IMG/VR virus record: IMGVR_UViG_3300020577_006811
Coordinates: 18,195-82,194 of that record
Reading direction: 5' to 3' (one strand)
DNA length: 64,000 bases
From: a virus
Lineage: Duplodnaviria > Caudoviricetes
Below are positions 13,522-42,076 of this stretch, piece after piece. Positions within the stretch are counted from its first letter, which is position 1; each line of letters begins with the position of its first letter. The notes under the pieces are model-generated. The model was not told the DNA's origin, ran no database searches, and saw only the letters and a list, made by a program, of their open reading frames with translations. A program made the translations under genes and the position numbers.

Positions 13522-14046
13522 ATGGATCTTTCCAAGATGCGCGCGCGCACGAAGATGCGCACAGTTGCGGGGCATTCTATTGCTCGGCAGAACCGGACAT
13601 CGAAGGCTTTCACGAAGGCGGAGGCCGAGGCGAAGAACGCGCCGTATGCGGGCGAGTCTGGGATTGACGTTGAGGGCAACAAGCCGAAGCCGCGGCTGGA
13701 TCGTCCGGCGCGGGCGTCGGGCGGTCGGGTGTGCCGCGCGGACGGCGGCGTGACGCTGTCTGAGGACAGCAAGAAGATGGCCGCGAAGTTGCGCGAAGAC
13801 GCTTCTGACGATCAGAAGAGAGCTATCTTTAACGGCGGTGTCGCCGCCATGCTGGGCGGTTTGACAAAAGGCTCCAAGGTCGGCAAGGCGCTATTTGGTG
13901 CTAACGCGCTGATGGCCGGCACCGGGGCGCTTTCGGCTACGGGGAAAAGACTGGAAGCCAGAGAGATTGAACGTGGCCGCGCGGAAGAAGGCAAGGAAGA
14001 CCGCAAGCGCGGCGGCCGTGTCGCTCGGGACAAGGATTGCGACTGA
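13522..14046 (+). CDS. AxGGxV-motif family paralogue 2 with one RADGG...GKEDRKRGGRV cassette
   Basis: AGGAGA SD; VEGNKPKPRLDRPAR, RADGGVTLSEDSKK, glycine-rich hydrophobic segment. Confidence 0.8.
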   Translation: MDLSKMRARTKMRTVAGHSIARQNRTSKAFTKAEAEAKNAPYAGESGIDVEGNKPKPRLDRPARASGGRVCRADGGVTLSEDSKKMAAKLREDASDDQKRAIFNGGVAAMLGGLTKGSKVGKALFGANALMAGTGALSATGKRLEAREIERGRAEEGKEDRKRGGRVARDKDCD

Positions 14047-14228
14047 TGACTGGCAAGAACTGGATCAAGGCCGCGGTCGGCAAAAATCCGGGCGGCTTGC
14101 ACAAGTCTCTTGGCATTCCGGCTGGCGAGAAAATCTCGGCAAAGAAATTGGCCAAGGCAGAGCATTCGTCCAATCCGAAGGTGCGCCGCCAAGCGAACCT
14201 GGCCAAGACGTTGAAAGGGCTGAAGTGA
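14046..14228 (+). CDS. Small basic phage protein (60 aa)
   Basis: TGATG overlap; NWIKAAV...PGGLHKSLGIP...ANLAKTLK. Confidence 0.75.
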   Translation: MTGKNWIKAAVGKNPGGLHKSLGIPAGEKISAKKLAKAEHSSNPKVRRQANLAKTLKGLK

Positions 14229-14229
14229 T

Positions 14230-15228
14230 ATGAGCCGCCCCATCACAGTCACCGTCGGCGGCCTGGCCGCTGCGTCTGCAACCAAGCTCGGGTTGAGCCA
14301 GAAGGCTGCGATTGCGGGCACGAACTATCTGGTGCTCAACGGCGCGTCGGGCTCGTTCGTGGCCAACAGCGTATGCGCCTCGCAGACGCCGGGCGGCGCG
14401 GGCGCGCTGGTGCTCAACGGCACGCTGGCCAGCAGCGTCCAGACGGGAACCGCAATTGCCTACCTGCCGTCACTCTCCCGTATCTACATTACAGGTGGCT
14501 CCAACGAGAGCGGCAAGACGTTCACCGTGCTCGGCTACGTGTTCACGGCTGCGGGCGGGCCCGTGGCGGTGACGGAGACCATCACTGGGCCCAATGCGTC
14601 TACGGTCTCCAGCATCTACCAATACCAGCAGATCATCAGCATCACGGCCTCGGCCGGAACTGCGGGCGCGATTACCGTTGGCCACTACGGGACGGCCACG
14701 CAGGATTACGCCCGGCAGGTGATCATCACGTCGGCGGGCGACGATTCATCGAACACGTTTACGATCTCAGGTACGGATTGGGCCAACAACCCGATCAGTG
14801 AGAACCTGGCGGGCGCCAACGCGGGCGTGGCTACGTCCGTCCTGAGCTACAAGACCGTGACCAGCATTGCCAGCAGCGCGGCGGTCGCCTCTACGTTGAC
14901 CATTGGCACGAACACTGTGGCGTCGTCGGACTGGGTGCGGTTCGATGACTATTCGGCTGCTGCGCAGGTGGCGATCCAGGCCAGCGTGTCCGGAACCGTG
15001 AACTACACGATCCAGCAGACCATGGATGATCCAAACGATCCATCGCGGAATATCTACAACAATCCGGCTGGCGTGGTGTGGGTCAATCACCCTGATGCGG
15101 CATTTGTTGCGGCATCGGCGACAGCGCAAGGCAACTATGCCTACACCCCTATCTTCGCACGCGTGGTGATCAACAGTGGCACGGGTACGGTGCGGGCAAC
15201 TTTTAGGCAAGTTGGGACCTGGTCCTGA
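14230..15228 (+). CDS. Structural protein, beta-rich
   Basis: 332 aa; internal ITITGxNESGK/VIITSAGDDS repeats shared with 12433-13389. Confidence 0.7.
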   Translation: MSRPITVTVGGLAAASATKLGLSQKAAIAGTNYLVLNGASGSFVANSVCASQTPGGAGALVLNGTLASSVQTGTAIAYLPSLSRIYITGGSNESGKTFTVLGYVFTAAGGPVAVTETITGPNASTVSSIYQYQQIISITASAGTAGAITVGHYGTATQDYARQVIITSAGDDSSNTFTISGTDWANNPISENLAGANAGVATSVLSYKTVTSIASSAAVASTLTIGTNTVASSDWVRFDDYSAAAQVAIQASVSGTVNYTIQQTMDDPNDPSRNIYNNPAGVVWVNHPDAAFVAASATAQGNYAYTPIFARVVINSGTGTVRATFRQVGTWS

Positions 15229-15413
15229 TGGGTGGTCTCATTGACAGCAGCACGGGGCTCGCGTTTGGCGAAGGCTTGCAGTTCCAGACGCCCATTGGCG
15301 GCGCTGGGCTGACGATCCAAGTCAATACGCCGCCGCCCACGGGCTCTGTCATGATCACGGAAGCTACGGACAGAATGATCACCGAAACCGGTGACGTCAT
15401 GATAACGGAATGA
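15228..15413 (+). CDS. Small protein with three MITE repeats, putative fibre docking peptide
   Basis: MITEATDRMITETGDVMITE C-terminus. Confidence 0.65.
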   Translation: MGGLIDSSTGLAFGEGLQFQTPIGGAGLTIQVNTPPPTGSVMITEATDRMITETGDVMITE

Positions 15414-15419
15414 TCGCCC

Positions 15420-17726
15420 ATGGCTGACGTCAAATGGTCTGCATTTCCATCCGGCACAACGATTGCTGGTGTGGATATCGTTGTGGGGTTGCAGGGTGGC
15501 GCCAACGTCCAGTGGACCTGGAGCCAAGGGCTTACGTACATCGCGAGCGGCACCGCGACGCTGACCAACAAGACATTTGACACGGCCGGAACGGGAAATT
15601 CGTTTTCGATTGCCGGGGTCGCGGTCACGGCCAACACGGGCACGGGCGCCGTGGCACGCGCGACCTCTCCGACTTTTGTCACGCCGGCTCTGGGAACGCC
15701 TTCGTCTGCCACGCTGACCAATGCGACGGGGCTTCCCATTGGGACCGGCGTTTCAGGACTCGGCACGGGGGTCGCGACCGCTCTTGCTGTCAACGTTGGC
15801 AGCGCGGGTGCGTTTGTCACGTTCAACGGGGCGCTAGGAACGCCAGCCTCTGGCGTTGCAACAAACCTGACCGGACTTCCCCTTACAACGGGCGTTACCG
15901 GCGTTCTCCCGGTTGCCAACGGCGGCACGAATGCAAGCTCTGCCAGCATCACGGCCTTCAACAACATCACGGGTTACACGGCAGCTGGCGCGACTGGCGC
16001 CACGTCAACCAACCTCGTATTCTCAACGTCGCCCACGCTGGTCACGCCTGTCCTTGGGGCCGCCACCGGCACATCGTTGTCTGTGACAGGCGCTCTGACC
16101 GCCTACAGTGGCACGGCTATTCCTGCCGGTGGCACGACGGGTTCAGGCATTAAGTTCTCATCCACGAGCAACTACGGTATTTTCTTTGGCTCTGGCGCCC
16201 CGACGCTGTCGGCGGCGCAGGGGTCTATCTATCTGCGCTCAGACGGTACGTCCTCGACCACCATCTATGCCAACACGGATGGATCTACGACGTGGGCGGC
16301 TGCTGGCGGTGGTGGAACTCCGGGCGGCTCCTCTGGTCAGGTCCAGTACAATAATGCTGGGGCGTTTGGTGGAGCGGCGGGCTTCACGTTCAACGGAACG
16401 GCGACACTGACGCTGGGAGTCGCTGCGACGTCAACCGGCTCGCTGGTGCTTTCCAACGCAACGTCTGGAGCAGCAACACTTACCTCTGACGCGGCGAACA
16501 CGCTCGCCCTGCGTAACTCGACAAACGCGCAGACGTTCAACGTCTACAACACCTACACCGACGCCTCGAACTACGAGCGCGCCTTCCTTGGGTGGTTCTC
16601 GAACGACTTCTATATCTCGACGCAGAAGTCTGGAACCGGCGGCGGCCGCGCCATCGTGTTTCAAACAAACAACACGTCGCGCTGGTTTATCGAGGCAACG
16701 AGTGGCAATTTCCTTGCTGTCTCTGACAACACGATTGACATCGGTTCGTCGGGCACGAACCGCCCGCGCACGGGCTACTTCGGCACGTCCGTTGTGGCGC
16801 CGGCTTTCATCGGCTCGACGTCGATGTCGGCGCCGTACATCACCTTGACGCAGGGCACGATCACGGCCGACGCGCCGCAGCTCAATGGTTCGGTGACGTG
16901 GAACAACTCCGGCGTCACGTTCACCGGCTGGAAGCTCAACGTCACGGATACAGCCTCTGCCTCTGCCTCCCTGCTGATGGACCTGCAGGTGGGGGGAACG
17001 AGTCAGTTTAAGGTGAATAAAGCGGGTGTTGGCACGTTGATTGGGGTGCTCACATCGGGTGGCATCGTAACGACAGGATCTTCCGCCGTCGCCGCAGGCG
17101 GGAATGTCTTTGTTGGCGCAAGCGACAACACCAAATCGATACTCTTCGGCACTGCCACCGACGTCATCCTCGCCCGCGACGCGGCGAACACGCTCGCCCT
17201 GCGTAACTCGACAAACGCGCAGACGTTCAACGTCTACAACACCTACACCGACGCCTCGAACTACGAGGTCGGCATTTTCTCGTGGTCGTCTAATGTTCTG
17301 ACCATCGGTGCGCGCAAAGCTGGGACGGGATTGCAACGCGGAATCAAAATTGAAGGCAACACAGCGGATACCTTAAATTATGGGGTCACAAATGCCGGTT
17401 CATGGACATTTGCCTACAATAGCGGGTTTTCGTTCGTCATCGACGGCAACAGCGGAATGTACACATGGGGAACAACGTCTTCTTTCCCCGCGCTCAAGCG
17501 CGATGGTGTAGGCATCCGCGCTCGTCTTGCAAATGACGGTGCTGATACTTGGTTCAAGGTGCTGCGCACTGTTGTTGCCAGCCTTCCTTCCGCCGCCACC
17601 GCAGGCGCTGGCGCCATGGCTATCGTTTCTGATGCTACCGCGCCCGTGAAGGGCACAGCAGTGACGGGCGGTGGCTCAGTGCAGACGCTGGTCATCTCCG
17701 ATGGTACCAACTGGCTTGCAGGCTAA
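15420..17726 (+). CDS. Tail fibre / receptor-binding protein 1
   Basis: 768 aa G/T/S/A-rich, GVLPVANGGT repeat, followed by a DUF4376 gene. Confidence 0.8.
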   Translation: MADVKWSAFPSGTTIAGVDIVVGLQGGANVQWTWSQGLTYIASGTATLTNKTFDTAGTGNSFSIAGVAVTANTGTGAVARATSPTFVTPALGTPSSATLTNATGLPIGTGVSGLGTGVATALAVNVGSAGAFVTFNGALGTPASGVATNLTGLPLTTGVTGVLPVANGGTNASSASITAFNNITGYTAAGATGATSTNLVFSTSPTLVTPVLGAATGTSLSVTGALTAYSGTAIPAGGTTGSGIKFSSTSNYGIFFGSGAPTLSAAQGSIYLRSDGTSSTTIYANTDGSTTWAAAGGGGTPGGSSGQVQYNNAGAFGGAAGFTFNGTATLTLGVAATSTGSLVLSNATSGAATLTSDAANTLALRNSTNAQTFNVYNTYTDASNYERAFLGWFSNDFYISTQKSGTGGGRAIVFQTNNTSRWFIEATSGNFLAVSDNTIDIGSSGTNRPRTGYFGTSVVAPAFIGSTSMSAPYITLTQGTITADAPQLNGSVTWNNSGVTFTGWKLNVTDTASASASLLMDLQVGGTSQFKVNKAGVGTLIGVLTSGGIVTTGSSAVAAGGNVFVGASDNTKSILFGTATDVILARDAANTLALRNSTNAQTFNVYNTYTDASNYEVGIFSWSSNVLTIGARKAGTGLQRGIKIEGNTADTLNYGVTNAGSWTFAYNSGFSFVIDGNSGMYTWGTTSSFPALKRDGVGIRARLANDGADTWFKVLRTVVASLPSAATAGAGAMAIVSDATAPVKGTAVTGGGSVQTLVISDGTNWLAG
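16488..17267 (+). repeat. Exact 90-bp direct repeat (16488-16577 and 17178-17267)
   Basis: Identical DNA encoding DAANTLALRNSTNAQTFNVYNTYTDASNYE. Confidence 0.95.
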
Positions 17727-17729
17727 CCC

Positions 17730-18395
17730 ATGAACTATGCTATCTCCCTTTCTGGTCAATCCTATACCCTGTCTACACCAGACGACGCTCAGATTGCAGC
17801 GATTGCTGCATGCAGGGCGCGCGTGAATGCTGCAATGCCTCAGACGGTCAAGGACGGCGATAACGACATCCCGAACCCGGAACTGTTGGCAGATTACAAT
17901 GCCTTCCTGCAGCGTGCTTTCGAAGCGTGGGCGACCACCAATCCGGGGTTCACTGCGGAGGAAGTGGAAGCTACAAAGGTTCGCGCCTTCGCCTCTTACG
18001 CAGGCCAGAACCCTCCTGAACAGATCGTTGAGGATGTCCCGCTCACGGGCGATGCCCTGAAGGCGGCCCTCAAAGCCTACGCCGCAAGCAAGCGCTACAC
18101 CGTCGAAACAGGCGGCATGACCGTCAACGGCATGGCCATTCCTACGGATCGCATCACGCAGAGCAAGCTCTCTGGTGCGGTGCTGGCCTTCCAAGCTGGC
18201 GCCCTTACCGGCTCCATTGATTGGAAGACCTCTTCGGGCTGGGTCTCTCTCGATCAAGCCTCCGTCACGGCTCTGGCCTCCGCCGTCGCCATGCACGTCC
18301 AAGCCGCCTTCTCCGTCGAAAAATCCGTCTCTGACGCCATTGATGCAGAGACCATCACAACCATTGATCAGATCAACGCAGCAGCGTGGGCTTAA
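17730..18395 (+). CDS. Tail fibre assembly protein, DUF4376-like
   Basis: LKAYAASKRYTVETGG...TDRITQSKL...IDWKT...HVQAAF. Confidence 0.8.
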   Translation: MNYAISLSGQSYTLSTPDDAQIAAIAACRARVNAAMPQTVKDGDNDIPNPELLADYNAFLQRAFEAWATTNPGFTAEEVEATKVRAFASYAGQNPPEQIVEDVPLTGDALKAALKAYAASKRYTVETGGMTVNGMAIPTDRITQSKLSGAVLAFQAGALTGSIDWKTSSGWVSLDQASVTALASAVAMHVQAAFSVEKSVSDAIDAETITTIDQINAAAWA

Positions 18396-18404
18396 GGACG
18401 CGGG

Positions 18405-19112
18405 ATGACCACGACGAGCACGTACACATTTTCGCAATCTGCCGCCTCCGGATTGACGCTGGTGGCGTTCAGCCGGATCGGGTTGCGCCGGACGGAACTG
18501 ACGGTGCAGCATCTGCAGGACGCGGCGGTTGAGGCGAATCTGCTGCAGGTCAGCATTGCTGGAAATCAGCCCAACCTGTGGTCGTCAGAGATCTACGACA
18601 TCACTCTCGTGGAGGGGCAGGTGGAATATGACCTGCCCGCGCGAATGATCGCAGTCCAAGATATCTACCTGACAACCACCCCAACTGGAGGCACGTCGCA
18701 GACGTCAACCGACCGCGTGCTCGGGGCACTCTCGCTGTTCGAATACGATTCCCAGGCCAACAAACTGCAGCAGGCCCCCCCGACGTCCTACGTCGTGTTC
18801 AAGACCTTGCAGCCGACCATCAAGTTCTGGCAGGTGCCCGACGGCAACGCCACCTACGTGGCGCACGTCCGCATGCTGACCCAGATCCAGGACGCCAGCC
18901 AGCGCAACGGAACGACGCTGGATCTGCCCTACATCTACCTTGATACCTACGTCGCGGGGCTTGCCTACCGTATGGCGCGCATCTACGCCCCCGACAAGGA
19001 AATGATGCGCAAGCAGGACTACATGGAAGCGCTGGCGATCTCGCAGAACACGGACACGCAGGACTCGGTTGGTCTCTACATCCAGCCGGATTTCAGCGTC
19101 TACAATAATTAA
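18405..19112 (+). CDS. Head-tail adaptor/connector-type protein
   Basis: AFSRIG...NQPNLW...YDLPA; LAYRMA...Y helix; structural context. Confidence 0.65.
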   Translation: MTTTSTYTFSQSAASGLTLVAFSRIGLRRTELTVQHLQDAAVEANLLQVSIAGNQPNLWSSEIYDITLVEGQVEYDLPARMIAVQDIYLTTTPTGGTSQTSTDRVLGALSLFEYDSQANKLQQAPPTSYVVFKTLQPTIKFWQVPDGNATYVAHVRMLTQIQDASQRNGTTLDLPYIYLDTYVAGLAYRMARIYAPDKEMMRKQDYMEALAISQNTDTQDSVGLYIQPDFSVYNN

Positions 19113-19134
19113 CTGACTTAATAAATGGTGACCT

Positions 19135-19860: not shown

Positions 19861-19871
19861 GAAGCCACCCT

Positions 19872-20123: not shown

Positions 20124-20153
20124 AGACAAATTGCCTTCGCGCGTGGAGACGTC

Positions 20154-29173: not shown

Positions 29174-29177
29174 GGCC

Positions 29178-29522: not shown

Positions 29523-29613
29523 ACGCGCATATTTTTTTCAAGACACTCTGCCGTGACCTGTGTATTTCTTGGGTTGCCTGTGCTGCGTCCAAAATTCAAA
29601 CCCGAGACGCCGC

Positions 29614-32600
29614 ATGGCTCACCCGCTTGCCACCGCTCTTGCCCGCGCCGAACAGCAGACCGAGACGTCGCTGACCGACAAGGCACGCGAGGAGGGCAGT
29701 TACCGCAAAGGCAAACTGACCTGGAATGACATCCCTATCGCGATTGAGAACCCGAAAGGGTCCATTCGCACGGGCGTCGGCCGCGATGGCAAGCGCTGGT
29801 TCTGCGAGATGCCTGCCGCCTATGGCGAGGTGCGCAGGAGCGAAGGCCAGGACGGCGACCCGGTGGACGTCTACGTGGGGCCCGCGCACGGTAGCAAGCG
29901 CGTCTGGGTTATTGACCAGGTGGATGCCGATACGGGACGCAGTGACGAACACAAGTGTTTGCTTGCTTTCCCGAACAAGGACGCGGCGCTGAAGGCCTAC
30001 GAGGCGTCGTTTTCCGACGGGAAAGCTAAACAGCGCATTGGCGCTGTGACGGAACTCTCGGTCGCGGAGTTCCGCGATTTCCTGAAAAACGGGGACACCA
30101 CTAAGCCCATGTCTCAGCAGAAAAAGTCCGACAAGGCATTGGAAGTCGCGCAGCGCTACACCAAGGGCTACGCCTACGGTGGCCGTGTGGGATACGCCGA
30201 AGGCGGCCCGGCTGGCGAGATCGCATCAGAGATGACCCGCGATCTGCGCCGGGACCGGCAGCGGCGGGCGCTCGCAGGGCGCGAACTGACGCCCGATGAG
30301 GAGGCTGCCTACGCCGACTACGTGGCGCGGTTGCCCGAGCGGCGCGAAATGAAGGCCCGCGAACTGGACGGCTTTACGTCGGGTATCGGCGACCTGCTGA
30401 CGCCGGGCGAAACGCTGCCGATGATGGACGCGCGGACGCGTCGCCAGATTGCGGCTCGGTCGCTTGCTGGGCGAGATCTGACCTACGACCAGATGCGCGA
30501 GTTGGCAGATCAGGAGGCGGTCAACGAGGAGCGCAGCGCGCGACTGGGCGTGCCCTTGGGCATTGCTGCAACGGAACTGACGGGCGTGCCATCCATCATG
30601 CGCGGCGGCAGCAACGTCGTGCGCGGCATTGAAGAGCGCGATCCGGCCCGCATTGCGGGTGGTGCTTTGGAAGGCGTCATCGGGGCGGCTCCGCTGGGAA
30701 TGGTGGCTCGGCCCGTGGCCGCAGCCTTGAAGCCGCTGACTGGATCGGTGCCGCGGTTTACGGCGACCAGCATGGGCGCGTCTGGCTTGACGTCCTACGC
30801 GGACGACGCCAAGGCGGCCGAACGCAACGTGGCGACGCGCATTGCGAGCGACCCGGAAGTGAAGGCCATTATTGACAAGCGGACAGCGGCGCTGGCTGAG
30901 ATCCAGCGGGTGCAGGAAGACCTGATTGCGAAGAACCCCGCCATCCAAGCTTTGGAGGCAAAGCGGGCGCAGCAGCAGCTCCTGCGCAAGGCGACAAACG
31001 ATAAGTATGCCAAGGCGGGCCCCGAGACGCAGAAGCAGGCGCTGGCGCCGTTTGACGAAGAGATCAAACGCATCAATGGCCAGATCCAGGAAATCAGCGA
31101 CGGCGCGTTAAAGCCTTATAAGGACGAAGTGACCCGGCTGACGGCGGCTCTTGGCACTGCCGAAGATCGCGCGCGCGCGGCCTACATGGATGAAGCTACG
31201 TTCCGCGAAAAGTACCCCGGCGTGCCGATGGCGCTGATGGCTGGCGGTCTAGGTGTGGCTGGCGCGCTCCCGTTGATGAAGGCGGGGCTGGGCCGGGTCA
31301 CGGACAGTTGGAAGCGCAAGTCTATTGAGGACGCGACGACCAAGACGGAGAACGCGTTCGCGGGCGGTCTGTCAGATGCGGAGACGGCCATCGCGCAGCA
31401 GCGGTTGCAGCGGCATTTGGATCGCTGGGACGCTGACCATGGGAAGATTGCAGGTGGCTGGAATTTTCTCGCCAATACCGGCAAAGGGGCGCTGTTGGGC
31501 GCCGAGGCGTCGCAGTTGCCGGAGCAATTGGATTACCTGACCAACGCGCCGGGGCACCCCGCACGCGAGGCGGCCGTCAAGCAATTGCAAAACCCAGAGT
31601 ATTGGAAGGAGCGTTGGGGCCCGGCGCTACTTGGCGCTGGCAGCGCCATCATGGGGCACACGGCGGCGCACATGATCCCGCAGAACCGGGAGTTTCTGGT
31701 GCCGGCGCGAGAAGTGGCGTCACGCGGGGCCGAGCCGTCGCGGGTGGACGCGCTGTTGGCGAAGTTGCACGGGCGGAGCAAGCCCGAGGGCCCGACCGAG
31801 GACGCCATCAAGCAGGTGCAGCGGTATCGGTCTGCTGTTGGGCCTTCCGGTGCGCGTGAAGACGCCAAGATGCTCGAAGGGCTGCTTGATACGCCTCCGG
31901 GCTCAGGCGCTCCTTTGCCACGGCCCACTTCTCCTGAATTGACAGCGTTGCCCAGTCCGTCGGTAATCCCGCCGTCTGCACAGGCTCCAAGTCCGTCGCG
32001 GTCGCCCGAAGCGCTTTCCAATCTGGAGTCTGCGGCATCCAAGGCCTCTGATGTGATCAAGCAGTCCAAGCGTAGCGCGGATATGCGGCCTTGGGAAGGC
32101 GCTCCACCCAAGGGGGTTAAACTGCCCAAGGGAACTCTGTGGGACGCGAACATGGGGCGGACTCGGCGCGAGGACGGCACGTTGGGGCCGGCTCCTCGGT
32201 ACAGTGCGCCTCGAAAAAAGGATAACCCGCAAAGCTTACCCAAGTCTGAACAGGGGGAAGGCAAGGCGTCGGGCGGGATTGTCGGGCGAGTTTTCGACGT
32301 CGTGCGCCGGTATGCTGGTGGCGGCCGAGTGGTCCCGCATGGGTTGATGGCGGGGGACACCCCAGGTCGTTCCGACAAATTGCCGGTGCAAGTCCCAAAT
32401 GGCGCCTATGTACTGCCCGCAGACTTTGTCTCAGGCCTTGGCGAGGGCAATACCATGGCCGGCTCAAAGCGGTTCAAGGAAATGTCGCCGCCCCCTGCTC
32501 CTGGGTTTGCGCGAGGCGGCCACGTTGAAATCATGATCAGCGACGGCGAAGAGGTGGTGCACCCCGACGTCGTCGCGGCATGGGGTGGCGGCGATTTAGA

Positions 32601-32691
32601 TAGAGGGCACAAGGTTCTTGACCAAATGGTGAGGCAAGGTAGATCAGAGACGATCCGTAAATTAGCGTCCCTTCCACCGCCCGCGAAATAG
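29614..32691 (+). CDS. Large putative ejection protein with N-terminal InPase (polyvalent-protein pyrophosphatase-like) domain
   Basis: YRKGK...IENPKGSIRTG...YG...GQDGDPVDVYVGP...DEHKCLLAF; five AxGGx motifs; C-terminal GRSDKLPV...SDGE domain. Confidence 0.8.
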   Translation: MAHPLATALARAEQQTETSLTDKAREEGSYRKGKLTWNDIPIAIENPKGSIRTGVGRDGKRWFCEMPAAYGEVRRSEGQDGDPVDVYVGPAHGSKRVWVIDQVDADTGRSDEHKCLLAFPNKDAALKAYEASFSDGKAKQRIGAVTELSVAEFRDFLKNGDTTKPMSQQKKSDKALEVAQRYTKGYAYGGRVGYAEGGPAGEIASEMTRDLRRDRQRRALAGRELTPDEEAAYADYVARLPERREMKARELDGFTSGIGDLLTPGETLPMMDARTRRQIAARSLAGRDLTYDQMRELADQEAVNEERSARLGVPLGIAATELTGVPSIMRGGSNVVRGIEERDPARIAGGALEGVIGAAPLGMVARPVAAALKPLTGSVPRFTATSMGASGLTSYADDAKAAERNVATRIASDPEVKAIIDKRTAALAEIQRVQEDLIAKNPAIQALEAKRAQQQLLRKATNDKYAKAGPETQKQALAPFDEEIKRINGQIQEISDGALKPYKDEVTRLTAALGTAEDRARAAYMDEATFREKYPGVPMALMAGGLGVAGALPLMKAGLGRVTDSWKRKSIEDATTKTENAFAGGLSDAETAIAQQRLQRHLDRWDADHGKIAGGWNFLANTGKGALLGAEASQLPEQLDYLTNAPGHPAREAAVKQLQNPEYWKERWGPALLGAGSAIMGHTAAHMIPQNREFLVPAREVASRGAEPSRVDALLAKLHGRSKPEGPTEDAIKQVQRYRSAVGPSGAREDAKMLEGLLDTPPGSGAPLPRPTSPELTALPSPSVIPPSAQAPSPSRSPEALSNLESAASKASDVIKQSKRSADMRPWEGAPPKGVKLPKGTLWDANMGRTRREDGTLGPAPRYSAPRKKDNPQSLPKSEQGEGKASGGIVGRVFDVVRRYAGGGRVVPHGLMAGDTPGRSDKLPVQVPNGAYVLPADFVSGLGEGNTMAGSKRFKEMSPPPAPGFARGGHVEIMISDGEEVVHPDVVAAWGGGDLDRGHKVLDQMVRQGRSETIRKLASLPPPAK

Positions 32692-32699
32692 GACGCCAC

Positions 32700-33215: not shown

Positions 33216-33220
33216 CCGCC

Positions 33221-35047
33221 ATGGGCTTCATTTCCGATCTGTTCGCGCCAAAGACCTCGCAGCAGGCACAACAGCAGGGCACGTCCACCACCAGCAACAA
33301 TGCCTGGGGTGCGGTCCAGCCGTACATGAACCAGTACCTGCAACAGTTCTCGGCCGGGAACATTGCGGGCGCGCAGACTCCGGTCACGCCGTATCAATAC
33401 GCAGCTGCCGACAGTCAGATGGGCACGGCGGCCAATCTGACGCCTGCGTATGCCGCGGCTGGCGATGTGGCGTCTGGCGGTATCAACCCCGCAAAGATCA
33501 GCGGGTACATGTCGCCCTACATCTCCAATGTGGTGGACGCGACGCGGGCTCAATTTGCGAACAACAATGCGCGTACGTTGGCAGGCCAGCAGGCCTCCAC
33601 CGCAAAAGCGGGCGCTCTGACAGGGACGCAGCGCGCGGTCGGCCGTGCCATCTCCGAAGGACAATTGGCGGCGGCTCAAGACCCAGTCATTGCCAGCCTT
33701 TACAACCAAGGCTACGGGCAGGCGGCCAATCTCGCGCAGGCAGATACGAACGCTCGGCTGGCAGGCGCTAGCACATTAGGGAGTCTTACAGGCGCACAGA
33801 CAAGCGCCAATTCGGCCTTGGCCGCCATGGGTAACCAAATCTGGAACAATCAGTACCAGAACACGCTGACGCCTTTCAATCTGACCACGCAAGGTGCCGC
33901 TGGGTTGACCCCACTCACCAACGCCGCTGGCACCGCTACAAGTTCTAGCGGGTCGTCAACGGGGACGACCACACAAGCCCCAGGCGCCATCCAAAGTCTG
34001 ATGGGGCTCGCGGGGCTTGGATTGTCCGGTTACGACTACGGGGTTGGCAAGGGCTGGTTTGCGGACGGTGGTCGCGTGGGCTACGCAGAGGGTGGCTCCG
34101 TGATCAAGCCCTTTGAGGGCGCCAGCGAGCCGTTCCACGCCAAGATGGAAAAGGCTTTCCACACAATCCAGCGGCTCAAGGAATACGCCAAGGGCGGTCC
34201 CGTGTCGTCGCGCTATGCCGATGGGGGCGCCATCGGGCCTTGGGAAACCACAGTTGAGCGCGCCCCCGCGGAGCCAACGCCAGAGGCACAGTTCGGCAAG
34301 CGGCTTGAATCCATCGGCACGGCCATGACGCCTTATCGTGCGTCTGGTGACGATGTCGGCGGCGTCGGCAGCCTGACGCGGTTCATGGAGGGCGTGCGCA
34401 GCGCCAATATCCCGCGCTATGCGGGCGGCGGCTTTATTGATCCAAAAGACAACGATCCGGCCATTACGCCGTATGGGGCCGAGCCAAGCGCACCCCCGTC
34501 CTACCTCGGGCGCGGCACGCAGCCTCCTTCTTCCTCAGTCCAGCCGAGAGAACCGATGAGCACGGTGCGGCCGATGTCACCGGAAGCTCAGTTCGCGTCG
34601 GTTTTGCTGTCCGGAAGCCCGATTGCTGGCAGCGGACAGGCGATGCGCGATCTGCAACAGCAGCGCATTCAGGAAGAAGAAAACAAGCGCAACAATGCCC
34701 TGGCGCAAGCGCGGTACGCGCTGGAGGCGGCGCGCAACCCGCATCTGATTGAGCAATTGAAGGCGCACAGCATCGGTGGCCAGAAGGAACTGAAGTCGTA
34801 CGAATACACGATGCAGAAGGATCTGGAAGCCATCAAGAGCCTGCGCGAAATCGAGAAGGGCATTGATGATGCGGTCATGTATGGCGTCATCACCCCGGAT
34901 GAAGCCAACATGCGGCGACAGGCGGCGCGTGACCAGTACCAGCAGAACCGCGGCCTGATCCAGGGCGTCAAGACGCCACCGAAGGCCATGCCGACATCGC
35001 CTCCGGGCGCGGTGCGGGAGTGGGTGCCGGGCAAAGGCTTGCAGTAA
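33221..35047 (+). CDS. DNA ejection (pilot) protein
   Basis: Gln/Ala/Gly-rich, YMSPYISNVV, GALTGTQRAV; five AxGGx motifs. Confidence 0.75.
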   Translation: MGFISDLFAPKTSQQAQQQGTSTTSNNAWGAVQPYMNQYLQQFSAGNIAGAQTPVTPYQYAAADSQMGTAANLTPAYAAAGDVASGGINPAKISGYMSPYISNVVDATRAQFANNNARTLAGQQASTAKAGALTGTQRAVGRAISEGQLAAAQDPVIASLYNQGYGQAANLAQADTNARLAGASTLGSLTGAQTSANSALAAMGNQIWNNQYQNTLTPFNLTTQGAAGLTPLTNAAGTATSSSGSSTGTTTQAPGAIQSLMGLAGLGLSGYDYGVGKGWFADGGRVGYAEGGSVIKPFEGASEPFHAKMEKAFHTIQRLKEYAKGGPVSSRYADGGAIGPWETTVERAPAEPTPEAQFGKRLESIGTAMTPYRASGDDVGGVGSLTRFMEGVRSANIPRYAGGGFIDPKDNDPAITPYGAEPSAPPSYLGRGTQPPSSSVQPREPMSTVRPMSPEAQFASVLLSGSPIAGSGQAMRDLQQQRIQEEENKRNNALAQARYALEAARNPHLIEQLKAHSIGGQKELKSYEYTMQKDLEAIKSLREIEKGIDDAVMYGVITPDEANMRRQAARDQYQQNRGLIQGVKTPPKAMPTSPPGAVREWVPGKGLQ

Positions 35048-35059
35048 GGAGACGACGCT

Positions 35060-36151: not shown

Positions 36152-36160
36152 AGGCGCCCC

Positions 36161-38539
36161 ATGGCGGACGATAACAATCCCTTCGCGCGCTTCGTGGCCA
36201 AGAAGCCCGAAGAGGACAACCCGTTCGCCCAGTTCGCGCGGCCTAAGCCGGAGACGCCTGCTGAGGCCGACACCGGGAATGTCGGCGCGTATGCGCGCGC
36301 GTTACCTACGGACGGGGCGGCATCCAGCCACGCCGATGGCAAGGACAACCGGTCGTGGACGCAGTGGGCGCGCGACAGCGTCATGGGGCGCCATGACCCC
36401 GTGTACCACGGCATCCCCACGTTTGACGAGGCCATGCAGGAGGAGAACAAAGGCAACTTCTTTGCCTCTCCGGAGATCCGGCGCATCCGCACAGGTGCCA
36501 TGACGGCGGGTGACGACGCGATCTACGGCGACATCATGAAAGCGGCCATCGGCGACCGGTTCATTCGGAAGGAGACCGACGCCAATGGCTACGATGTCAT
36601 CGTCTACCACGGTAAAGACGGCACCGAAAAGAAGGCGTACGTGAACCGGCCGGGTCTTGACGCCGAGGATGTCAGCCGTGGGTTGGCAAGCGCTATTCCT
36701 TACGGGCTGGCTGGACTGGCTGCCGCGTATACTGGGGGCACCGCGCCCTTGATCGCACGTGGCGTCGTGCAGGGCCTCAGCCAAGCCGGAACCAGCATCG
36801 GCATGGACATGCTGTCTAAGCCTCTTGGTTCGGAGCAGGGGGTGGACAAAACCCGTGCTGGGATCATGGGCGCCATGGGGGTCGCGGGCGAACTTGCAGC
36901 CCCCGCCGTCGCTGCGGCTTGGCGCAATCTGGTAACGGTGCCGGGGCTGTTTGATGCGGCCGTTGGACGTTTGACTCCGAAAGGGTATCAGGTCGCGATT
37001 GATATCGGACTTGACCCTAACACCTTCACCAAAGATATGGCGAAAGCCTTCGCCAAGGAATACGCCATCACGGGCGATGCGGCGGCAGCTGGGCGGCAGG
37101 TGGCTGCGTCCGACCTTGGGATTGTTTCTACCGTGGGACAGCGGTCCAAAAATCCGCTGGAACTGCTGGAAGAGATGTCCATGCGCAAGGGCCTAAAGGG
37201 TACCGCCGCACAGGAGGAGATGAAGCGATTTGACGACTTGCAGGCGCAGCAATTAACGCGCGCCGCTATGGGCGATGCAGAGAACGCGGGCGCCGGCAAT
37301 CTGCCGAACAGCAAAGGCATTGCAGCAGCACTCAACCCGTCGCGTGATCTGAAAGACGTCGTCCCCGCCGAACTCGGCACAGACATCAAGGAAGGCGTGA
37401 AGGCCGCTCAGCGGGCTGCGCGCGACGCCGAAAACCAGGCATGGCAGGGACTGCACAACGTTACCGCGCACCCCGACGCCATGAAGTTGCTGCCGCAAGC
37501 CATTGGCACTGAGTTGGGCGACCGCGCCGTGGATCAGACCGTGACGCCTGCGGCTTACAACATGGCGAAGATGCTGCAAGGCTACATGAGTGGCGACGCC
37601 ATGAAGCAGCCGTTTGAGGTGTTGGGCCAGACAGCGGCGACGCCAACGGTTGACGGTATGCGGCGGCGCTTGCTGGCCGGCATGGGCGGCGCGGCGACGC
37701 CTGAGGATCGCGCAGTGGCAGGAAAGATCTACGACGGGTTCAACAATTGGATCAAGGAAGCGGCGGACGCTCAGTTGCTGGCTGGGCACCCGGACGCCGC
37801 CGTGGCCTTGCGCAGCGCGCGCGAGATCAGCCGCGAGGTCAAGGATCTGTTCCAGCCCCGGGACCGATCCGGCACCACGGCCGCAGGCCGGATTATTGAC
37901 CGCGTTCTGTCCAAAGAAGATACCCCCGAAGGCGTCGTGCGCGCGCTGGTGGGCACGCCAAGTTCCGATCTGAAGACTGGAACGGTTGACGCGCTGAGCC
38001 GGATGAAGAAGGCCTTGGACACCTACGGTGGGCCGGAGGGCGTCAACACATGGAACGACATCCGCAGCGCTTACTATATGCGTATGGTGACGGAGCCGAC
38101 TGGGAAGTTATTGTCACCGCAGAAGATGCTGACGTCCATTGAGAAGGCCTTCGGCAAGCAGAAATCGGCGCTGGATGTTCTGTTCACGAAAGACGAACTC
38201 GGCCAGATGAAGAAGCTTCAGAAGTCGCTGGAGCAGATCACGTACAAGGACCCGAACCCGTCAGGCTCCGGTTACGCCATCGCTCAGTTCGTCAAGGACG
38301 CGATGGGCAAGTTGCTCTCTGTTGTCGAAATGGTTCCTGGCGGTGGCTACGCTACCGCTCCGTTGCGGGTCGCTGGCCACATCACGAGTACAGCGCGCAA
38401 GGAAATGGCTGGCGCCAAGGCAGCCGCAGCAGCCACCAGTCAAGTGGCGCCGCGCACGCCGCCGCCTGCACTCGGGCCGCAGGCGTCGCTTCTAGCGCAG
38501 CAGTATTTGCGGATGCGCGAGCCCGAGCGCCGCGACTAA
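36161..38539 (+). CDS. Large DNA ejection protein
   Basis: NPFARF/NPFAQF N-terminus, Ala/Gly-rich hydrophobic segments, long helical C-terminus. Confidence 0.75.
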   Translation: MADDNNPFARFVAKKPEEDNPFAQFARPKPETPAEADTGNVGAYARALPTDGAASSHADGKDNRSWTQWARDSVMGRHDPVYHGIPTFDEAMQEENKGNFFASPEIRRIRTGAMTAGDDAIYGDIMKAAIGDRFIRKETDANGYDVIVYHGKDGTEKKAYVNRPGLDAEDVSRGLASAIPYGLAGLAAAYTGGTAPLIARGVVQGLSQAGTSIGMDMLSKPLGSEQGVDKTRAGIMGAMGVAGELAAPAVAAAWRNLVTVPGLFDAAVGRLTPKGYQVAIDIGLDPNTFTKDMAKAFAKEYAITGDAAAAGRQVAASDLGIVSTVGQRSKNPLELLEEMSMRKGLKGTAAQEEMKRFDDLQAQQLTRAAMGDAENAGAGNLPNSKGIAAALNPSRDLKDVVPAELGTDIKEGVKAAQRAARDAENQAWQGLHNVTAHPDAMKLLPQAIGTELGDRAVDQTVTPAAYNMAKMLQGYMSGDAMKQPFEVLGQTAATPTVDGMRRRLLAGMGGAATPEDRAVAGKIYDGFNNWIKEAADAQLLAGHPDAAVALRSAREISREVKDLFQPRDRSGTTAAGRIIDRVLSKEDTPEGVVRALVGTPSSDLKTGTVDALSRMKKALDTYGGPEGVNTWNDIRSAYYMRMVTEPTGKLLSPQKMLTSIEKAFGKQKSALDVLFTKDELGQMKKLQKSLEQITYKDPNPSGSGYAIAQFVKDAMGKLLSVVEMVPGGGYATAPLRVAGHITSTARKEMAGAKAAAAATSQVAPRTPPPALGPQASLLAQQYLRMREPERRD

Positions 38540-38868
38540 CGCAGTCCCAGCCACAATAGCACCGCGGCGCCTCCCACCACCATAAATGGGACGGCGCCGT
38601 CTTTTATTTCGTCGGGCGGCAGGCGCTGCCAGGCGGTGCGCACGCTGTTGTAGGTCGCCCAGATGAAGAACGGCGGCAGGGCGACGTTGAAGCAGAACGC
38701 GGTCCATGCGGCGGAGTGGTCGGGGAGCGCGGCGCCAAGGTAGCCCCAGGCCACGGCCTGCAGCAGACCGTAGCAGCAGGCGTGCACGATGAGGAGCCGG
38801 CCGGGCCGGTTGCGGGCGTCGGCAAGGTAGTCTCTAGCTTGAGCTAAGGCGGTTCCCAGCGTCCCCAT
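38536..38868 (-). CDS. Small membrane protein (~3 TM), convergent with the ejection genes
   Basis: Hydrophobic segments; stops overlap at 38536-38539. Confidence 0.6.
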   Translation of the reverse strand: MGTLGTALAQARDYLADARNRPGRLLIVHACCYGLLQAVAWGYLGAALPDHSAAWTAFCFNVALPPFFIWATYNSVRTAWQRLPPDEIKDGAVPFMVVGGAAVLLWLGLR

Positions 38869-39112
38869 CAGGGGTGGCTAGGCTGATTTGCGTGGTCCGG
38901 ACAGGGCAGCGAACGGCTTATCCACGGCCGTTGGCCTCTCAAAGAAGCCAAAATCGCGCAAGATGCCCACTTTGGGTCGGGGGCGTCTATTGATCCTTAG
39001 GTGAGCGGTTGCCGGCACAATCCTTGCCGTGCGGGCTTTGGTCCAAGGCGTGGCTAGTCTATGAGCGCTGTCCTATGTTCCGTTTGCCTAAAGATTGGTC
39101 CAAGGCCGCATC

Positions 39113-39580
39113 TCAGGCAGCTTGCTCAACGAGATCGGTTGCTGGGCCAACACTTGGCCTTTGCCGGCGCCCGATATGGCGCCAACGAGCCGCCTTTGCT
39201 GCCTTCAGAGATATGCCCATTTCGCGCGCAATCCCTTCGTCATTCCCGTGCTTTGCGTCGGCCGCCTTAAGCTTGGCGATGCGCTCGGCGTCCCAGGTGC
39301 GCCAGCCGCGCTTGCTGAACCTTGGCAGCGGGGCTTTCTGGTCTGTGGCCTCAAACGCTCGGGCCATCGCTTTCGCGACAGCCACACGGTGAAGCGGCGA
39401 AAGGGCCGCATAATTTTCAGCGTATTTCGGGCTGGCCAGGAAATCCCGGAACGTCTTCATGTTCCCAAACTTCGCGATGTGCGCGAATTTCTTGAGCAGG
39501 AAGCTGTTTGCCTTATAGGGCGAGATGTAGCGAATGCTCATGGTCTCCGGCGATAATTTTTTATTTGGTGCTGGCATCAT
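39113..39580 (-). CDS. Hypothetical protein with C-terminal HTH-like segment
   Basis: GAGGAG SD; NDEGIAREMGISLKAAKAARWR. Confidence 0.6.
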   Translation of the reverse strand: MMPAPNKKLSPETMSIRYISPYKANSFLLKKFAHIAKFGNMKTFRDFLASPKYAENYAALSPLHRVAVAKAMARAFEATDQKAPLPRFSKRGWRTWDAERIAKLKAADAKHGNDEGIAREMGISLKAAKAARWRHIGRRQRPSVGPATDLVEQAA

Positions 39581-39681
39581 GGTCGGCTTACTCCTCACGC
39601 TACATCCGTTCGCTGCGTTCCCCAAAATTAAAATCCCACGCTGAAGGCGCCGTCAAGGCGACAGTAGCAGGAGCGCATTGC

Positions 39682-40794
39682 ATGCCGATCATCATGAAGC
39701 CTGACGTGCTGGACTTATCTTCTTGGAACAACGTTGAGGACTGGTTCGCCGTCAAGAATTCCGGCATCAAGGGGATCATTCACAAGGCGTCAGAGGGTGT
39801 CGGCTTCGTGGACCGCACCTACGCCAAGCGCAAAGCCGACGTTGAGCGCGCGGGGATGCTCTGGGGCTCGTACCATTTCCTGAACCGGGCACCCGCCGAC
39901 CAGCAAGCGAAGCACTACATCAAGGCGTCGCTGTGGACGCCGGGCGCCAACATGCTGCTATGTTGCGACTGGGAGCCGTACGGCGCCAACACCGCGTCAC
40001 TGGCTCAAGCCAAGGAATTCCTGCGCATCGTCTACGAGGAGACGGGGCAGCGCCCGGTGCTCTATTCCGGCAACCTCGTCAAGGAACAAGGCCGCGGAGA
40101 TCCGTTCCTGTGCCAGCACCGACTTTGGCTGGCGCAATACACACAAGGGCGCCCGCAACTCCCTAGGGGGTGGTCGCAGTATTGGATGTGGCAGTACGCG
40201 GGGGACGGTATCTTTGGCACGGGCACCATCCCAGGCATTTCCACTAAGGGCATTGACTGCAACACGTTTGGCGGCGTTGACCTCGCTGCCGAATGGGCTG
40301 GACGCTTGCAAGACCGGCGCAACGCGCCGACGCCAGAGCCGAGCGAAAGCCCGTACATTGAGCCCGTAGATCCTGCGGAAATGGCGTCTGGCGCACCTGC
40401 GGCTGGTGGCGCCGGGCCAACAACTGAGCCCGTTTCGCTGACCTCACGCATCGTGACCGCAAGCACGACGGCCGCAGCCATCAATGAGCTTAGCGATCAG
40501 GGATCAAGACTTGGCAATCTGTTTCGTACCGTCAAGCAGCGCTTTTGGAAGGCGGTAGCCACCACGGGGGCTGTGGGCGGTGCCGCTGGCGGCGTGGTCA
40601 AGACCGATCAGGGCAACGCCGCCACCATTGCGGACTGGGCGCAGGCGCACCCTATCGCTTTTGGCTGCATCATCGGCGGCGGCATCGGTCTACTGGTCGG
40701 CGGTATCCTGCTCTACTTCGTGGTCAAACGCGGCGAACGCTGGTTGGCAACGGCCTACAACGCCGGCCGCTACGAGCCGCGCAAGGAGGCTTGA
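39682..40794 (+). CDS. Endolysin, GH25 muramidase with C-terminal hydrophobic segments
   Basis: DLSSWN, HKASEG, GSYHF, CDWE, LWLAQY, WQY, IDCNTF; AGGAG SD. Confidence 0.92.
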   Translation: MPIIMKPDVLDLSSWNNVEDWFAVKNSGIKGIIHKASEGVGFVDRTYAKRKADVERAGMLWGSYHFLNRAPADQQAKHYIKASLWTPGANMLLCCDWEPYGANTASLAQAKEFLRIVYEETGQRPVLYSGNLVKEQGRGDPFLCQHRLWLAQYTQGRPQLPRGWSQYWMWQYAGDGIFGTGTIPGISTKGIDCNTFGGVDLAAEWAGRLQDRRNAPTPEPSESPYIEPVDPAEMASGAPAAGGAGPTTEPVSLTSRIVTASTTAAAINELSDQGSRLGNLFRTVKQRFWKAVATTGAVGGAAGGVVKTDQGNAATIADWAQAHPIAFGCIIGGGIGLLVGGILLYFVVKRGERWLATAYNAGRYEPRKEA

Positions 40795-40797
40795 GCC

Positions 40798-41109
40798 ATG
40801 ATCCCGATTGGTTTCGACGTCGCCATGGTGCTGCGATTTATTGCCGGGCTCGGCATTGCGGCAGCCGTCTGGTGGGTTGCTGACGCCATTGGCGACGCGC
40901 GTGAAGCGAAAATCTACGCTCGCATTGATCGTGCGATCGAAAGCACAAACGCAGAAATTGACAAGCGCCTGACGCTTGATGAAAGAGTAGCGGCAGTCGC
41001 TGAAGCGGCCCGCGCGAAAGCGCTGTCCGATGCGTTGCGTCTCCCCTCGGTTGCTGTTGCGTGCCCCGCCAACAAAGCTCAGGCCGAAGCCCTGAGCGCA
41101 ATCAAGTAG
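40798..41109 (+). CDS. Inner-membrane spanin (Rz-like)
   Basis: N-terminal TM followed by coiled coil, after the endolysin. Confidence 0.7.
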   Translation: MIPIGFDVAMVLRFIAGLGIAAAVWWVADAIGDAREAKIYARIDRAIESTNAEIDKRLTLDERVAAVAEAARAKALSDALRLPSVAVACPANKAQAEALSAIK

Positions 41110-41116
41110 GCGCCTT

Positions 41117-41374
41117 ATGCGGAAATTCGCTCCCCTTGTCTGCCTCGCTCTCGGCGCTTGCGGCACCGCGCAGGCCGTGCCGACTGTGCCAGGCAAGATC
41201 ACGCCGCCGTCGCGCGAACTGATGAAGCCGCCGGCCGACCTGCCGAAGCTGACCGAAGGCGACAGCATTTACGATCATGCGGCCATGTGCCGGGCCGAGT
41301 ACGGGCGCGTTTCCAGCCAAGTCACAGGGCTCCAATCGTGGTCCACCATCGTCACTCGCCGGAAAGGAAACTGA
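41117..41374 (+). CDS. Outer-membrane spanin lipoprotein (Rz1-like)
   Basis: Lipobox LGAC, Pro-rich mature part. Confidence 0.8.
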   Translation: MRKFAPLVCLALGACGTAQAVPTVPGKITPPSRELMKPPADLPKLTEGDSIYDHAAMCRAEYGRVSSQVTGLQSWSTIVTRRKGN

Positions 41375-41377
41375 CCC

Positions 41378-42076
41378 ATGGCCGCGAAGTCTAAACTGAT
41401 GCTGATGAGCAAGATCAAGGCGAAGAAGAAGCCTGAGCACAAGGCGGCCGTTGAAGGCGACGCGCCTCGCCAGAGACTGGACCGTCCGGGCCGGATGCGG
41501 ATGCGTCGCGCGGATGGCGGGGTGACGATCAGCGAGGATAGCAAAAAGGAAGTCGAGCGTCTGCGTGATCATGGAGACAAGAACGCCATGATTGCAGCCG
41601 GCAAAGGCGCCACTGCGGGTTTTTTGATTAACAGACTTGGCCAAGCTATGGGTGGTTCAAAGCCCGCGTCCCGGGCTGTCGGGACAGCCGCTGGATTGTT
41701 AGGGATGGGCGCGGACGAACGTACAAAAAAAGCGGCCGACGCATTTCGCGAATCCAACCGCATTGAACGCGGCGAGGCCGAGCCCGGCAAGGAAGACCGT
41801 GCCGCCGGAGGTCGCGTCAAGCGCGCAGATGGGGGCATCGTTGAAGATTACATCAAGCCCGGACTTCCGACTGCGGTGCCCGCTGCTATCCAATCGCTTG
41901 CCCGTCGTTACCTGCCATCGCGCCGCGACCCGGAGATGGAGGCGAAACTTAAAGACGCGGCCTCTAACGCGGCGACGGGAGCAGGTGGCGCCCTTATGAA
42001 AGCGGGTCTCCGGCCGTCTGGCAAGGCGGTTGACGGCAAGGAAGATCGCAAGCGCGGTGGGAGGGTTTGCAAATGA
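41378..42076 (+). CDS. AxGGxV-motif family paralogue 3 with two cassettes
   Basis: VEGDAPRQRLDRPGR; RADGG...GKEDRAAGGRVK then RADGG...GKEDRKRGGRV. Confidence 0.8.
   Translation: MAAKSKLMLMSKIKAKKKPEHKAAVEGDAPRQRLDRPGRMRMRRADGGVTISEDSKKEVERLRDHGDKNAMIAAGKGATAGFLINRLGQAMGGSKPASRAVGTAAGLLGMGADERTKKAADAFRESNRIERGEAEPGKEDRAAGGRVKRADGGIVEDYIKPGLPTAVPAAIQSLARRYLPSRRDPEMEAKLKDAASNAATGAGGALMKAGLRPSGKAVDGKEDRKRGGRVCK

Follow-up and report, generated by a model that had tools for sequence, protein, structure and literature searches.

The 64,000-nucleotide stretch analyzed here (the window; positions 18,195 to 82,194 of the 82-kb IMG/VR virus record IMGVR_UViG_3300020577_006811) belongs to a phage that was detected in wastewater and river metagenomes from about ten studies. 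Bases 1 to ~43,000 of the window form a late region encoded on a single strand (+). Within this region we examined three genes for small basic proteins, designated P0001, P0002 and P0003. All three open reading frames (ORFs; 5614-6051, 13522-14046 and 41378-42076) are real and lie on the + strand. They share a header motif, and P0002 and P0003 also carry one and two copies, respectively, of a cassette that is opened by RADGG and closed by GKEDRxxGGRV. Lengths below are in amino acids (aa) or nucleotides (nt).

5614..6051, + strand: P0001, 145 aa, isoelectric point (pI) 10.4; directly after the portal gene; no cassette
5758-5802, + strand: P0001 header (residues 49-63), followed by KKGTTVNIVI and a proline-rich stretch
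5953-5976, + strand: P0001 junction MRASGGRV (residues 114-121), followed by the tail HDDKAQD..KMIKAHD
13522..14046, + strand: P0002, 174 aa, pI 10.1; AGGAG Shine-Dalgarno sequence 7 nt 5' of the ATG
13669-13713, + strand: P0002 header (residues 50-64)
13735-13749, + strand: P0002 cassette opener, in the tandem junction RASGGRV-CRADGG
13762-13971, + strand: predicted helical hairpin of P0002 (residues 81-150)
13990-14022, + strand: P0002 cassette closer GKEDRKRGGRV
14037..14228, + strand: 63-aa ORF overlapping the end of P0002
41378..42076, + strand: P0003, 232 aa, pI 10.3
41450-41494, + strand: P0003 header
41507-41521 and 41786-41818, + strand: opener and closer of P0003 cassette 1
41822-41836 and 42035-42067, + strand: opener and closer of P0003 cassette 2 (atypical)

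A preliminary description, made from the sequence of the window, had grouped these genes by their header and cassettes, and our comparisons bear this out. P0002 and P0003 share 42% identity over 151 residues (E = 3e-21), and the second half of P0003 aligns separately to P0002 (E = 2e-6). P0001 matches the other two by the header VEGDAPxxRLDxPGR only (E = 1e-6 and 3e-6) and has a proline-rich stretch in place of the cassette. The closers were also said to be alike in their DNA. Indeed, the 14-base sequence GGCAAGGAAGAYCG occurs exactly three times (13990, 41786 and 42035), each time at a cassette closer, against 0.08 occurrences expected. The strings VT(L/I)SEDSKK and IERGxAExGKEDR, described as common to two cassettes, are found in P0002 and in the first cassette of P0003, but not in its second cassette, which retains only the RADGG opener and the GKEDRKRGGRV closer. 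The interior of this second cassette fails the hidden Markov model of the cassette, and a search for its relatives found none. From these similarities we infer that the three genes are ancient paralogues within a single modular family, hitherto unannotated, whose members are small and strongly basic late proteins.

Cassette borders, predicted fold and family distribution

A word-indexed search recovered 29 relatives of these proteins, and an exhaustive profile search of 1.84 billion proteins yielded 90 representatives. Almost all come from metagenome assemblies, and one is from a Hyphomicrobiaceae metagenome-assembled genome; a scan of IMG/VR added one further locus only. The family is restricted to podophages of the alphaproteobacterial type whose portal is SU10-type. 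A Hyphomicrobiales bacterium living in wastewater is the probable host of the phage. Every member is basic (median pI 10.5, minimum 9.9).

Family scans of the window covered 30 of the 42 late ORFs, namely the three family genes, two sets of 10, the portal, Cpn10 and major capsid ORFs (compared with PHROGs only) and four small ORFs of the lysis unit (compared with NCBIfam only); 12 small or unmatched late ORFs and the phage early region upstream of the window lay outside these scans. Pfam, PHROG and NCBIfam gave no match to P0001-P0003, and a PDB profile search returned a chance match only (E = 1.4). There was likewise no match in tblastn searches of P0003 and of the large late protein P0112 against 50,697 phage records. 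The ESM Atlas held only unnamed viral clusters with scores below 0.9, and searching the literature for the motif strings found nothing relevant. Thus the family and the peptide at its module junctions appear to be undescribed, in agreement with the preliminary description, whose author knew of no earlier account.

The alignments show that the GG is invariant in both the opener (ADGG) and the closer (EDR..GG). The cassette borders are strongly conserved (ISEDSKxEA..LR and EAxRIExGxAxPGxEDRKxGGRV), while the middle retains its composition only. Cassette length is near-constant at 92-121 residues. Of 107 cassette-bearing proteins, 100 have one cassette and seven have two; none has more. Many family proteins terminate 2-4 residues past the GGRV.

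An AlphaFold2 model of the P0002 cassette, based on a 62-sequence alignment, predicts two long antiparallel helices (residues 81-114 and 119-150) with a predicted local distance difference test (pLDDT) score of 75-84. In this model a charged stem arises from pairing of the conserved borders, the tip consists of the Gly/Ala-rich part, and the junctions are disordered (pLDDT below 50). Cassette 1 of P0003 is modeled alike, and cassette 2 as two shorter helices only. A Foldseek search with the P0002 model against PDB and BFVD returned nothing at E<=0.001; the generic helical hairpins listed at E>=0.2 (EsxB/WXG100, YaxA) are uninformative. The tips are mildly hydrophobic with a low hydrophobic moment and are not classical transmembrane (TM) helices; association with membranes or packing into helix bundles is possible for them. 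The preliminary description had likened the middles to glycine-zipper or bacteriocin peptides, a resemblance that did not survive comparison, as no such family was matched and the tips fall below the classical transmembrane threshold.

Gene positions and module exchange

Each of the three gene positions recurs in related phages, so the arrangement is not a recent scatter. Position A, directly after the SU10-type portal, is occupied in the window and in five related loci (L001, L002, L008, L014 and L016). Examples are P0025 and P0028, in which a P0001-like part is fused to a cassette, P0011 followed by the P0001-like P0120, and the tandem pair P0008 and P0025. Position B lies between proteins of ~318 and ~335 aa, upstream of the SU10 adaptor gene, and is represented by P0018, P0029 and the L013 member (loci L009, L013 and L016). 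Position C follows the endolysin, i-spanin and o-spanin genes; there P0014 (L010) precedes a 53-aa TM protein with homology to the product of a 54-aa ORF of the window. Family members have their own N-terminal region at each position.

Around position B, the proteins that flank P0002 in the window (12433-13389, 318 aa, and 14230-15228, 332 aa) have no family match, and the pair is kept around the position-B gene in L009, L013, L014 and L016. A GC-rich hairpin between the preceding gene and P0002 was noted by eye and was not flagged by the scanner.

Modules of these proteins occur fused, split and reordered, exactly at junctions of the form [basic/aromatic]-A-x-G-G-x-[VI]. The proline-rich module is found with or without a cassette. 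The cassette, in turn, is found with or without the 63-aa module, which is a separate ORF in the window (14037-14228) and an in-frame fusion behind the cassette in P0018, P0037, P0044 and P0052; DUF3008 was considered as a name for this ORF and dropped, having no Pfam match. The HDDKAQD...KMIK module of P0001 recurs behind a cassette in P0037.

The clearest case of cassette gain or loss comes from a phage whose protein P0115 is an orthologue 98% identical to P0001. Here an extra cassette sits exactly between MRASGGRV and HDDKAQ, and the inserted DNA is bordered by imperfect direct repeats coding for RA(S/K)GGRV. P0004 is a version of P0003 with one cassette, and P0005 combines the header and tail of P0004 with an unalignable middle. 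Middles are unalignable even between close relatives with identical borders. The picture of conserved borders around a variable middle therefore holds, and both number and content of cassettes differ between phages (P0001 versus P0115; P0003 versus P0004 and P0005). A cassette is also found within a much larger protein. P0087 (1638 aa) begins with a phage lysozyme domain and continues with a cassette, a long body and the C-terminal domain that is also present in P0113, a large late protein of the window whose syntenic slot it occupies.

Some of these features would suit accessory proteins that act in assembly or structure without being ejected, such as scaffold-like helpers, portal or neck cement, or basic proteins that condense DNA. 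In that case helices would pack against one another through the Gly/Ala-rich hairpin, and the junction would be a peptide that docks on portal or scaffold. The very basic pI throughout the family fits such roles, as do position-specific N-termini beside portal and neck genes, the low hydrophobic moment and modest hydrophobicity of the tips, and best fold matches that are generic soluble helical hairpins. However, such roles leave three observations unexplained: one copy belongs to the lysis unit, one cassette is fused behind the lysozyme domain of a protein in the ejection slot, and hairpin tips turn over rapidly between near-identical phages. We consider this explanation unlikely.

The junction peptide and possible capsid loading

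The junction peptide is found beyond the family. In its strict form, [YFWRKMH]A.GG.[VI], it occurs 15 times in the 42 late proteins, against 0.31 occurrences expected (maximum of 3 in 2000 shuffles). These occurrences are restricted to six of the 42 proteins, namely P0001, P0002, P0003, the C-terminal extension of the portal, P0113 and P0112:

2971-5553, + strand: portal (PHROG portal; SU10-type in relatives)
5353..5373, + strand: junction-type motif MAAGGPV, in the C-terminal extension of the portal
29560..32691, + strand: P0113, 1043 aa; N-terminal InPase domain of the polyvalent/virion-protein type; four junction motifs
33221..35047, + strand: P0112, 608 aa, in the ejection-protein slot; no family match; five junction motifs (residues 279-405)

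The InPase family of P0113 belongs to polyvalent proteins according to Pfam. Its relatives in PHROG and GenBank are annotated as minor head protein, virion structural protein or DarB-like antirestriction protein. The C-terminal ~165 residues of P0113 (32197-32691) resemble residues ~1500-1638 of P0087. This conserved domain has no family match and contains an internal repeat (G.YVLPADFVS..G.GNT / ISDGE.V..P..V...GGGD); it could be a capsid-anchoring part.

In eight related loci the motif is again restricted to small proteins encoded after the portal, cassette proteins and large proteins in the ejection slot. The closest deposited phage, whose portal is 45% identical, encodes polyvalent proteins between its portal and GroES genes (P0111 with GNAT, M15 and ART-PolyVal domains, and an InPase protein), and the junction motif lies between their domains and at their C-terminus. 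The giant DarB-like protein of Ochrobactrum phage POI1126 has the InPase domain in common and lacks the junction motif, which is therefore specific to this lineage and not a general feature of polyvalent proteins. We also considered the junction as a mimic of the GroES mobile loop (AGGIVL; TAGGIIL in the phage Cpn10). This idea was dropped, as the residues after the GG are mostly R, K, S or P followed by V and not a hydrophobic tripeptide.

Because the junction peptide is carried by the inner C-terminal tail of the portal and by large proteins of the ejection or polyvalent type, we infer that the small proteins are co-loaded in the capsid. The reading that we favor, at somewhat below even chances, is that the family consists of small capsid-loaded and probably ejected proteins. 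Three indirect observations link the family to capsid cargo and ejection: members occupy the slot behind the portal, one cassette is fused into a giant protein of the ejection slot, and outside the family the junction peptide is seen only in the portal tail and in large proteins of the cargo type.

Under this proposal each protein would be a string of modules (a position-specific N-terminus, the VEGxxxRxRLDRPxR header, a proline-rich module, a cassette of ~100 residues and small C-terminal modules) linked by the putatively disordered junction peptide [basic/aromatic]-A-x-G-G-x-V. The cassette would form an antiparallel alpha-helical hairpin, with a charged stem made from the two borders and a fast-evolving Gly/Ala-rich tip that corresponds to the variable middle. 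The small proteins would be packed in the capsid alongside proteins of the ejection or polyvalent type and leave it at infection, and the junction peptide may act as a common docking or processing tag. The tip could contact the host envelope, or it could pack into a helical bundle that helps to build a conduit for DNA and cargo. Homology, modularity, synteny, the distribution of the motif, and insertion or deletion of cassettes at junction repeats are observed directly in the genomes; encapsidation, ejection, contact with membranes and a role for the junction peptide are putative extensions from them, and the hairpin is a model prediction.

A broader version of this proposal takes AxGGxV as a general "loading code" of the phage lineage. 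Modules bracketed by the peptide, whether enzyme domains or hairpin cassettes, would be docked on portal or scaffold, packed in the capsid, delivered and perhaps cut at the GG. The DNA repeats at junctions would serve as recombination sites that swap fast-evolving, envelope-active hairpins among head, neck and lysis loci. We regard this generalization as rather doubtful.

Several points weigh against capsid loading. Searches by sequence, profile and fold (PHROG, PDB profile, Foldseek against PDB and BFVD) matched no family member to a known ejection protein, and sharing a motif is an argument of guilt by association. The AlphaFold models are moderately confident (mean pLDDT 69 and 61). The best 19-residue Kyte-Doolittle window of the cassettes has a median of 1.05 and reaches 1.6 in one of 70 cassettes. 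In addition, P0003 lies in a separate lysis unit, between the o-spanin gene and a conserved small TM protein gene, a placement that suits a role in lysis at least as well.

The occurrence of disordered junctions exactly between modules, often in tandem (GGRV-x-RADGG), also bears on the proposal of the preliminary description that the genes encode polyprotein precursors. Cut at the GG junctions, in the manner of T4 capsid-targeting sequences or of adenovirus maturation at GG sites, they would release variable membrane-active or bacteriocin-like peptides. Such processing would agree with modules that exist both fused and as separate genes and with middles that differ among close relatives, and proteolytic processing has been proposed for polyvalent proteins (PMC5512222). 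On the other hand, the predominance of single cassettes and the maximum of two make a polyprotein a weak idea, and the 30 late ORFs that were scanned yielded no protease domain. A 210-aa protein of the head module was tried as a prohead protease and rejected, since its five orthologues have no invariant His or Cys. Release at the GG sites is also unsupported by the protein ends, as a cut at GGRV would free nothing useful where the protein terminates 2-4 residues on. The released unit would moreover be a charged hairpin of ~100 residues rather than a short peptide, the sequences show no consensus of a double-glycine leader, and neither bacteriocin nor glycine-zipper families were matched. Cleavage into active peptides is, in our judgment, improbable.

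The lysis unit provides the setting for a further explanation. It includes P0003 and the following genes:

39508-40794, + strand: GH25 endolysin with a C-terminal hydrophobic anchor (Pfam, E = 4e-31)
40798-41109, + strand: i-spanin-like protein
41117-41374, + strand: o-spanin-like protein with a lipobox
42067..42231, + strand: 54-aa single-TM protein, overlapping the P0003 stop

As the preliminary description had observed, P0003 directly follows the spanins, its gene starting 4 nt past the stop of the lipobox-containing o-spanin-like ORF. The family could accordingly be made up of lysis or membrane-timing proteins, in which the hairpin would be a two-segment membrane element with charged cytoplasmic ends, resembling a holin, antiholin or depolarizer, and the head and neck copies would be morons with the same activity. 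The lysis genes form their own unit behind a terminator-like site, the protein has two hydrophobic segments and basic termini, and both P0003 and its orthologue P0014 sit between the o-spanin and the conserved 53-54-aa TM protein, whose start overlaps their stop. It is this conserved placement, translationally coupled to the small TM protein, that keeps the explanation alive. Yet hydrophobicity stays under the TM level in 69 of 70 cassettes, the N-terminal regions span 40-75 residues, and no holin family was matched in the Pfam, PHROG and NCBIfam scans of P0001-P0003. Two of the three conserved positions lie in head and neck modules, and one cassette is inside a 1638-aa virion-type protein (P0087). 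Relatives keep the small TM protein after the spanins with or without an intervening cassette gene; in the P0087 phage no cassette gene separates the spanin from the small TM protein, which makes the cassette dispensable there. Overall, we judge a lysis function for the family to be distinctly unlikely.

Some other observations concern the genes around P0003. The long C-terminal extension of the GH25 endolysin has a strongly hydrophobic Gly-rich end, an unusual C-terminal membrane anchor, and L010 has a GH19 enzyme in place of the GH25 endolysin. The small single-TM protein after the spanins is present in three phages (window 42067-42231; L010 8465-8626; L012 ~18092-18244), at 50% identity (E = 1e-12). 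It has a conserved N-terminus, RRW(P/D)E..H, and is a candidate holin-like component without family assignment. In a 31.9-kb contig from another study the two-cassette P0003 is unchanged. This contig differs from the window at 31 positions, all within 40744-40968 in the N-terminal part of the i-spanin-like gene, with no differences in the adjacent o-spanin gene or P0003, which suggests a mosaic replacement. No polymorphism in cassette number at P0003 was seen among contigs of four sequencing runs over 40700-42400, a region that a single contig spans. None of the runs containing the phage is recorded as RNA, and those presumed to be RNA cover the window in part only.

The late region also contains a gene for a Gp80-like fibre protein, large tail and ejection-slot genes, and the following:

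6757-7209, head module: Cpn10/GroES-like gene (PHROG co-chaperonin, E = 1e-10)
7255-8424, + strand: scaffold-like gene (scaffold candidate)
10219-11130, + strand: major capsid gene
18405-19112, + strand: SU10-type adaptor gene

The place of the Cpn10/GroES-like gene, which encodes the mobile-loop-like sequence TAGGIIL, is kept across all related loci. An inserted gene for a 394-aa protein resembling HNH/AP2-type homing endonucleases (11241-12425) separates the major capsid gene from the structural gene that follows it; HNH_3, Endonuclease_7 or AP2 genes occupy the same place in L008, L009 and L014, and the terminases of L008 and L014 contain an intein. Past the late region, a 240-aa ORF on the - strand (43523-44245) has a signal peptide and resembles an outer-membrane beta-barrel protein. 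PF13505 (OMP_b-brl) genes of similar size are carried by L001, L002 and L010, and this ORF therefore seems to be a phage-borne porin-like moron.

Comparison with known systems

To our knowledge, T4, T7 and P22 aside, little is understood of how short-tailed phages choose the proteins that are loaded in the capsid and injected into the host. The phage described here offers a short, conserved and statistically unmistakable peptide common to the tail of the portal, small basic proteins and large proteins of the polyvalent or ejection type. Since cassettes have been inserted naturally at this peptide between near-identical phages, the hypothesis of a packaging tag or processing site is directly testable. 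Should the tag work, proteins of choice could be loaded into phage particles with its help; should the hairpins prove active on the envelope, they would represent a novel class of small factors in phage entry or lysis.

The undescribed family fits a known theme, that of modular phage proteins delivered from the capsid. Polyvalent proteins were proposed to be packaged in the head and perhaps processed by proteolysis (Iyer, Burroughs, Anand, de Souza and Aravind, 2017; PMC5512222). Like them, the cassette family has genes positioned after the portal (window, L001, L002, L008, L014 and L016) and shuffles modular units, and loading into the capsid followed by delivery is the proposed role in both cases. 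Junction motifs and one fusion also connect the family to proteins with domains of the polyvalent type (InPase, ART-PolyVal, M15, lysozyme). In contrast to polyvalent proteins, P0001-P0003 are not multi-domain proteins of that kind, as they have no enzymatic or effector domain and one or two cassettes at most; such domains are present only in neighbors and fusion partners (InPase in P0113; GNAT, M15 and ART-PolyVal in P0111; lysozyme in P0087). The AxGGxV junction peptide and the hairpin cassette are apparently not described in PMC5512222, the text of which contains neither "glycine" nor "transmembrane."

Ejection proteins of podophages are a second point of reference. The SU10 head holds five of them, gp20-24, defined by their presence in the virion and their loss on genome release (PMC9509320), and in crAss001 the cargo proteins, which have a predicted membrane helix, dock on the portal (PMC10172136). 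The family resembles the ejection proteins of SU10 (gp20-24; PMC9509320), T7 (gp14/15/16) and crAss001 (cargo C1/C2; PMC10172136) in being encoded by late genes, here in phages with an SU10-type portal and adaptor. Those proteins, small to large, are kept in the phage head, and for some of them it has been proposed that hydrophobic helices enter the envelope of the host. The cassette proteins differ in that they have no sequence, profile or fold similarity to them, are known from genes alone, and include a copy within the lysis unit.

With class II holins and double-glycine-leader bacteriocins, the cassettes have in common two Gly-rich hydrophobic segments, charged ends and a GG near the borders. 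Class II holins are shorter and more hydrophobic: the cassette proteins are 119-300 aa long with N-terminal regions of 40-75 residues, compared to 65-95 aa, a short N-terminus and two TM helices of classical hydrophobicity for such a holin. Unlike in double-glycine bacteriocins, the GG is internal or C-terminal, follows basic residues and lacks the leader consensus. Bacteriocin families gave no match at E<=1 apart from a marginal one to Geo26A (E = 0.098, against a cut-off of 40 bits), the Pfam Gly-zipper families and Rick_17kDa_Anti gave none at E<=1 for P0001-P0003, and no C39 or ABC domain was present in the ORFs scanned (the early phage region being outside the scan).

Finally, the targeting sequence of T4 internal proteins is cut by gp21, and adenovirus protease sites are of the hydrophobic-x-G-G type. 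The junction peptide resembles these sites in being a short linear motif at module borders that is common to otherwise unrelated proteins of the capsid interior. It differs in that scanning of head, tail and ejection genes revealed no cognate protease; several late proteins match no family at all. The motif also occurs at extreme C-termini and in tandem pairs, which suits a docking tag as well as a cut site.

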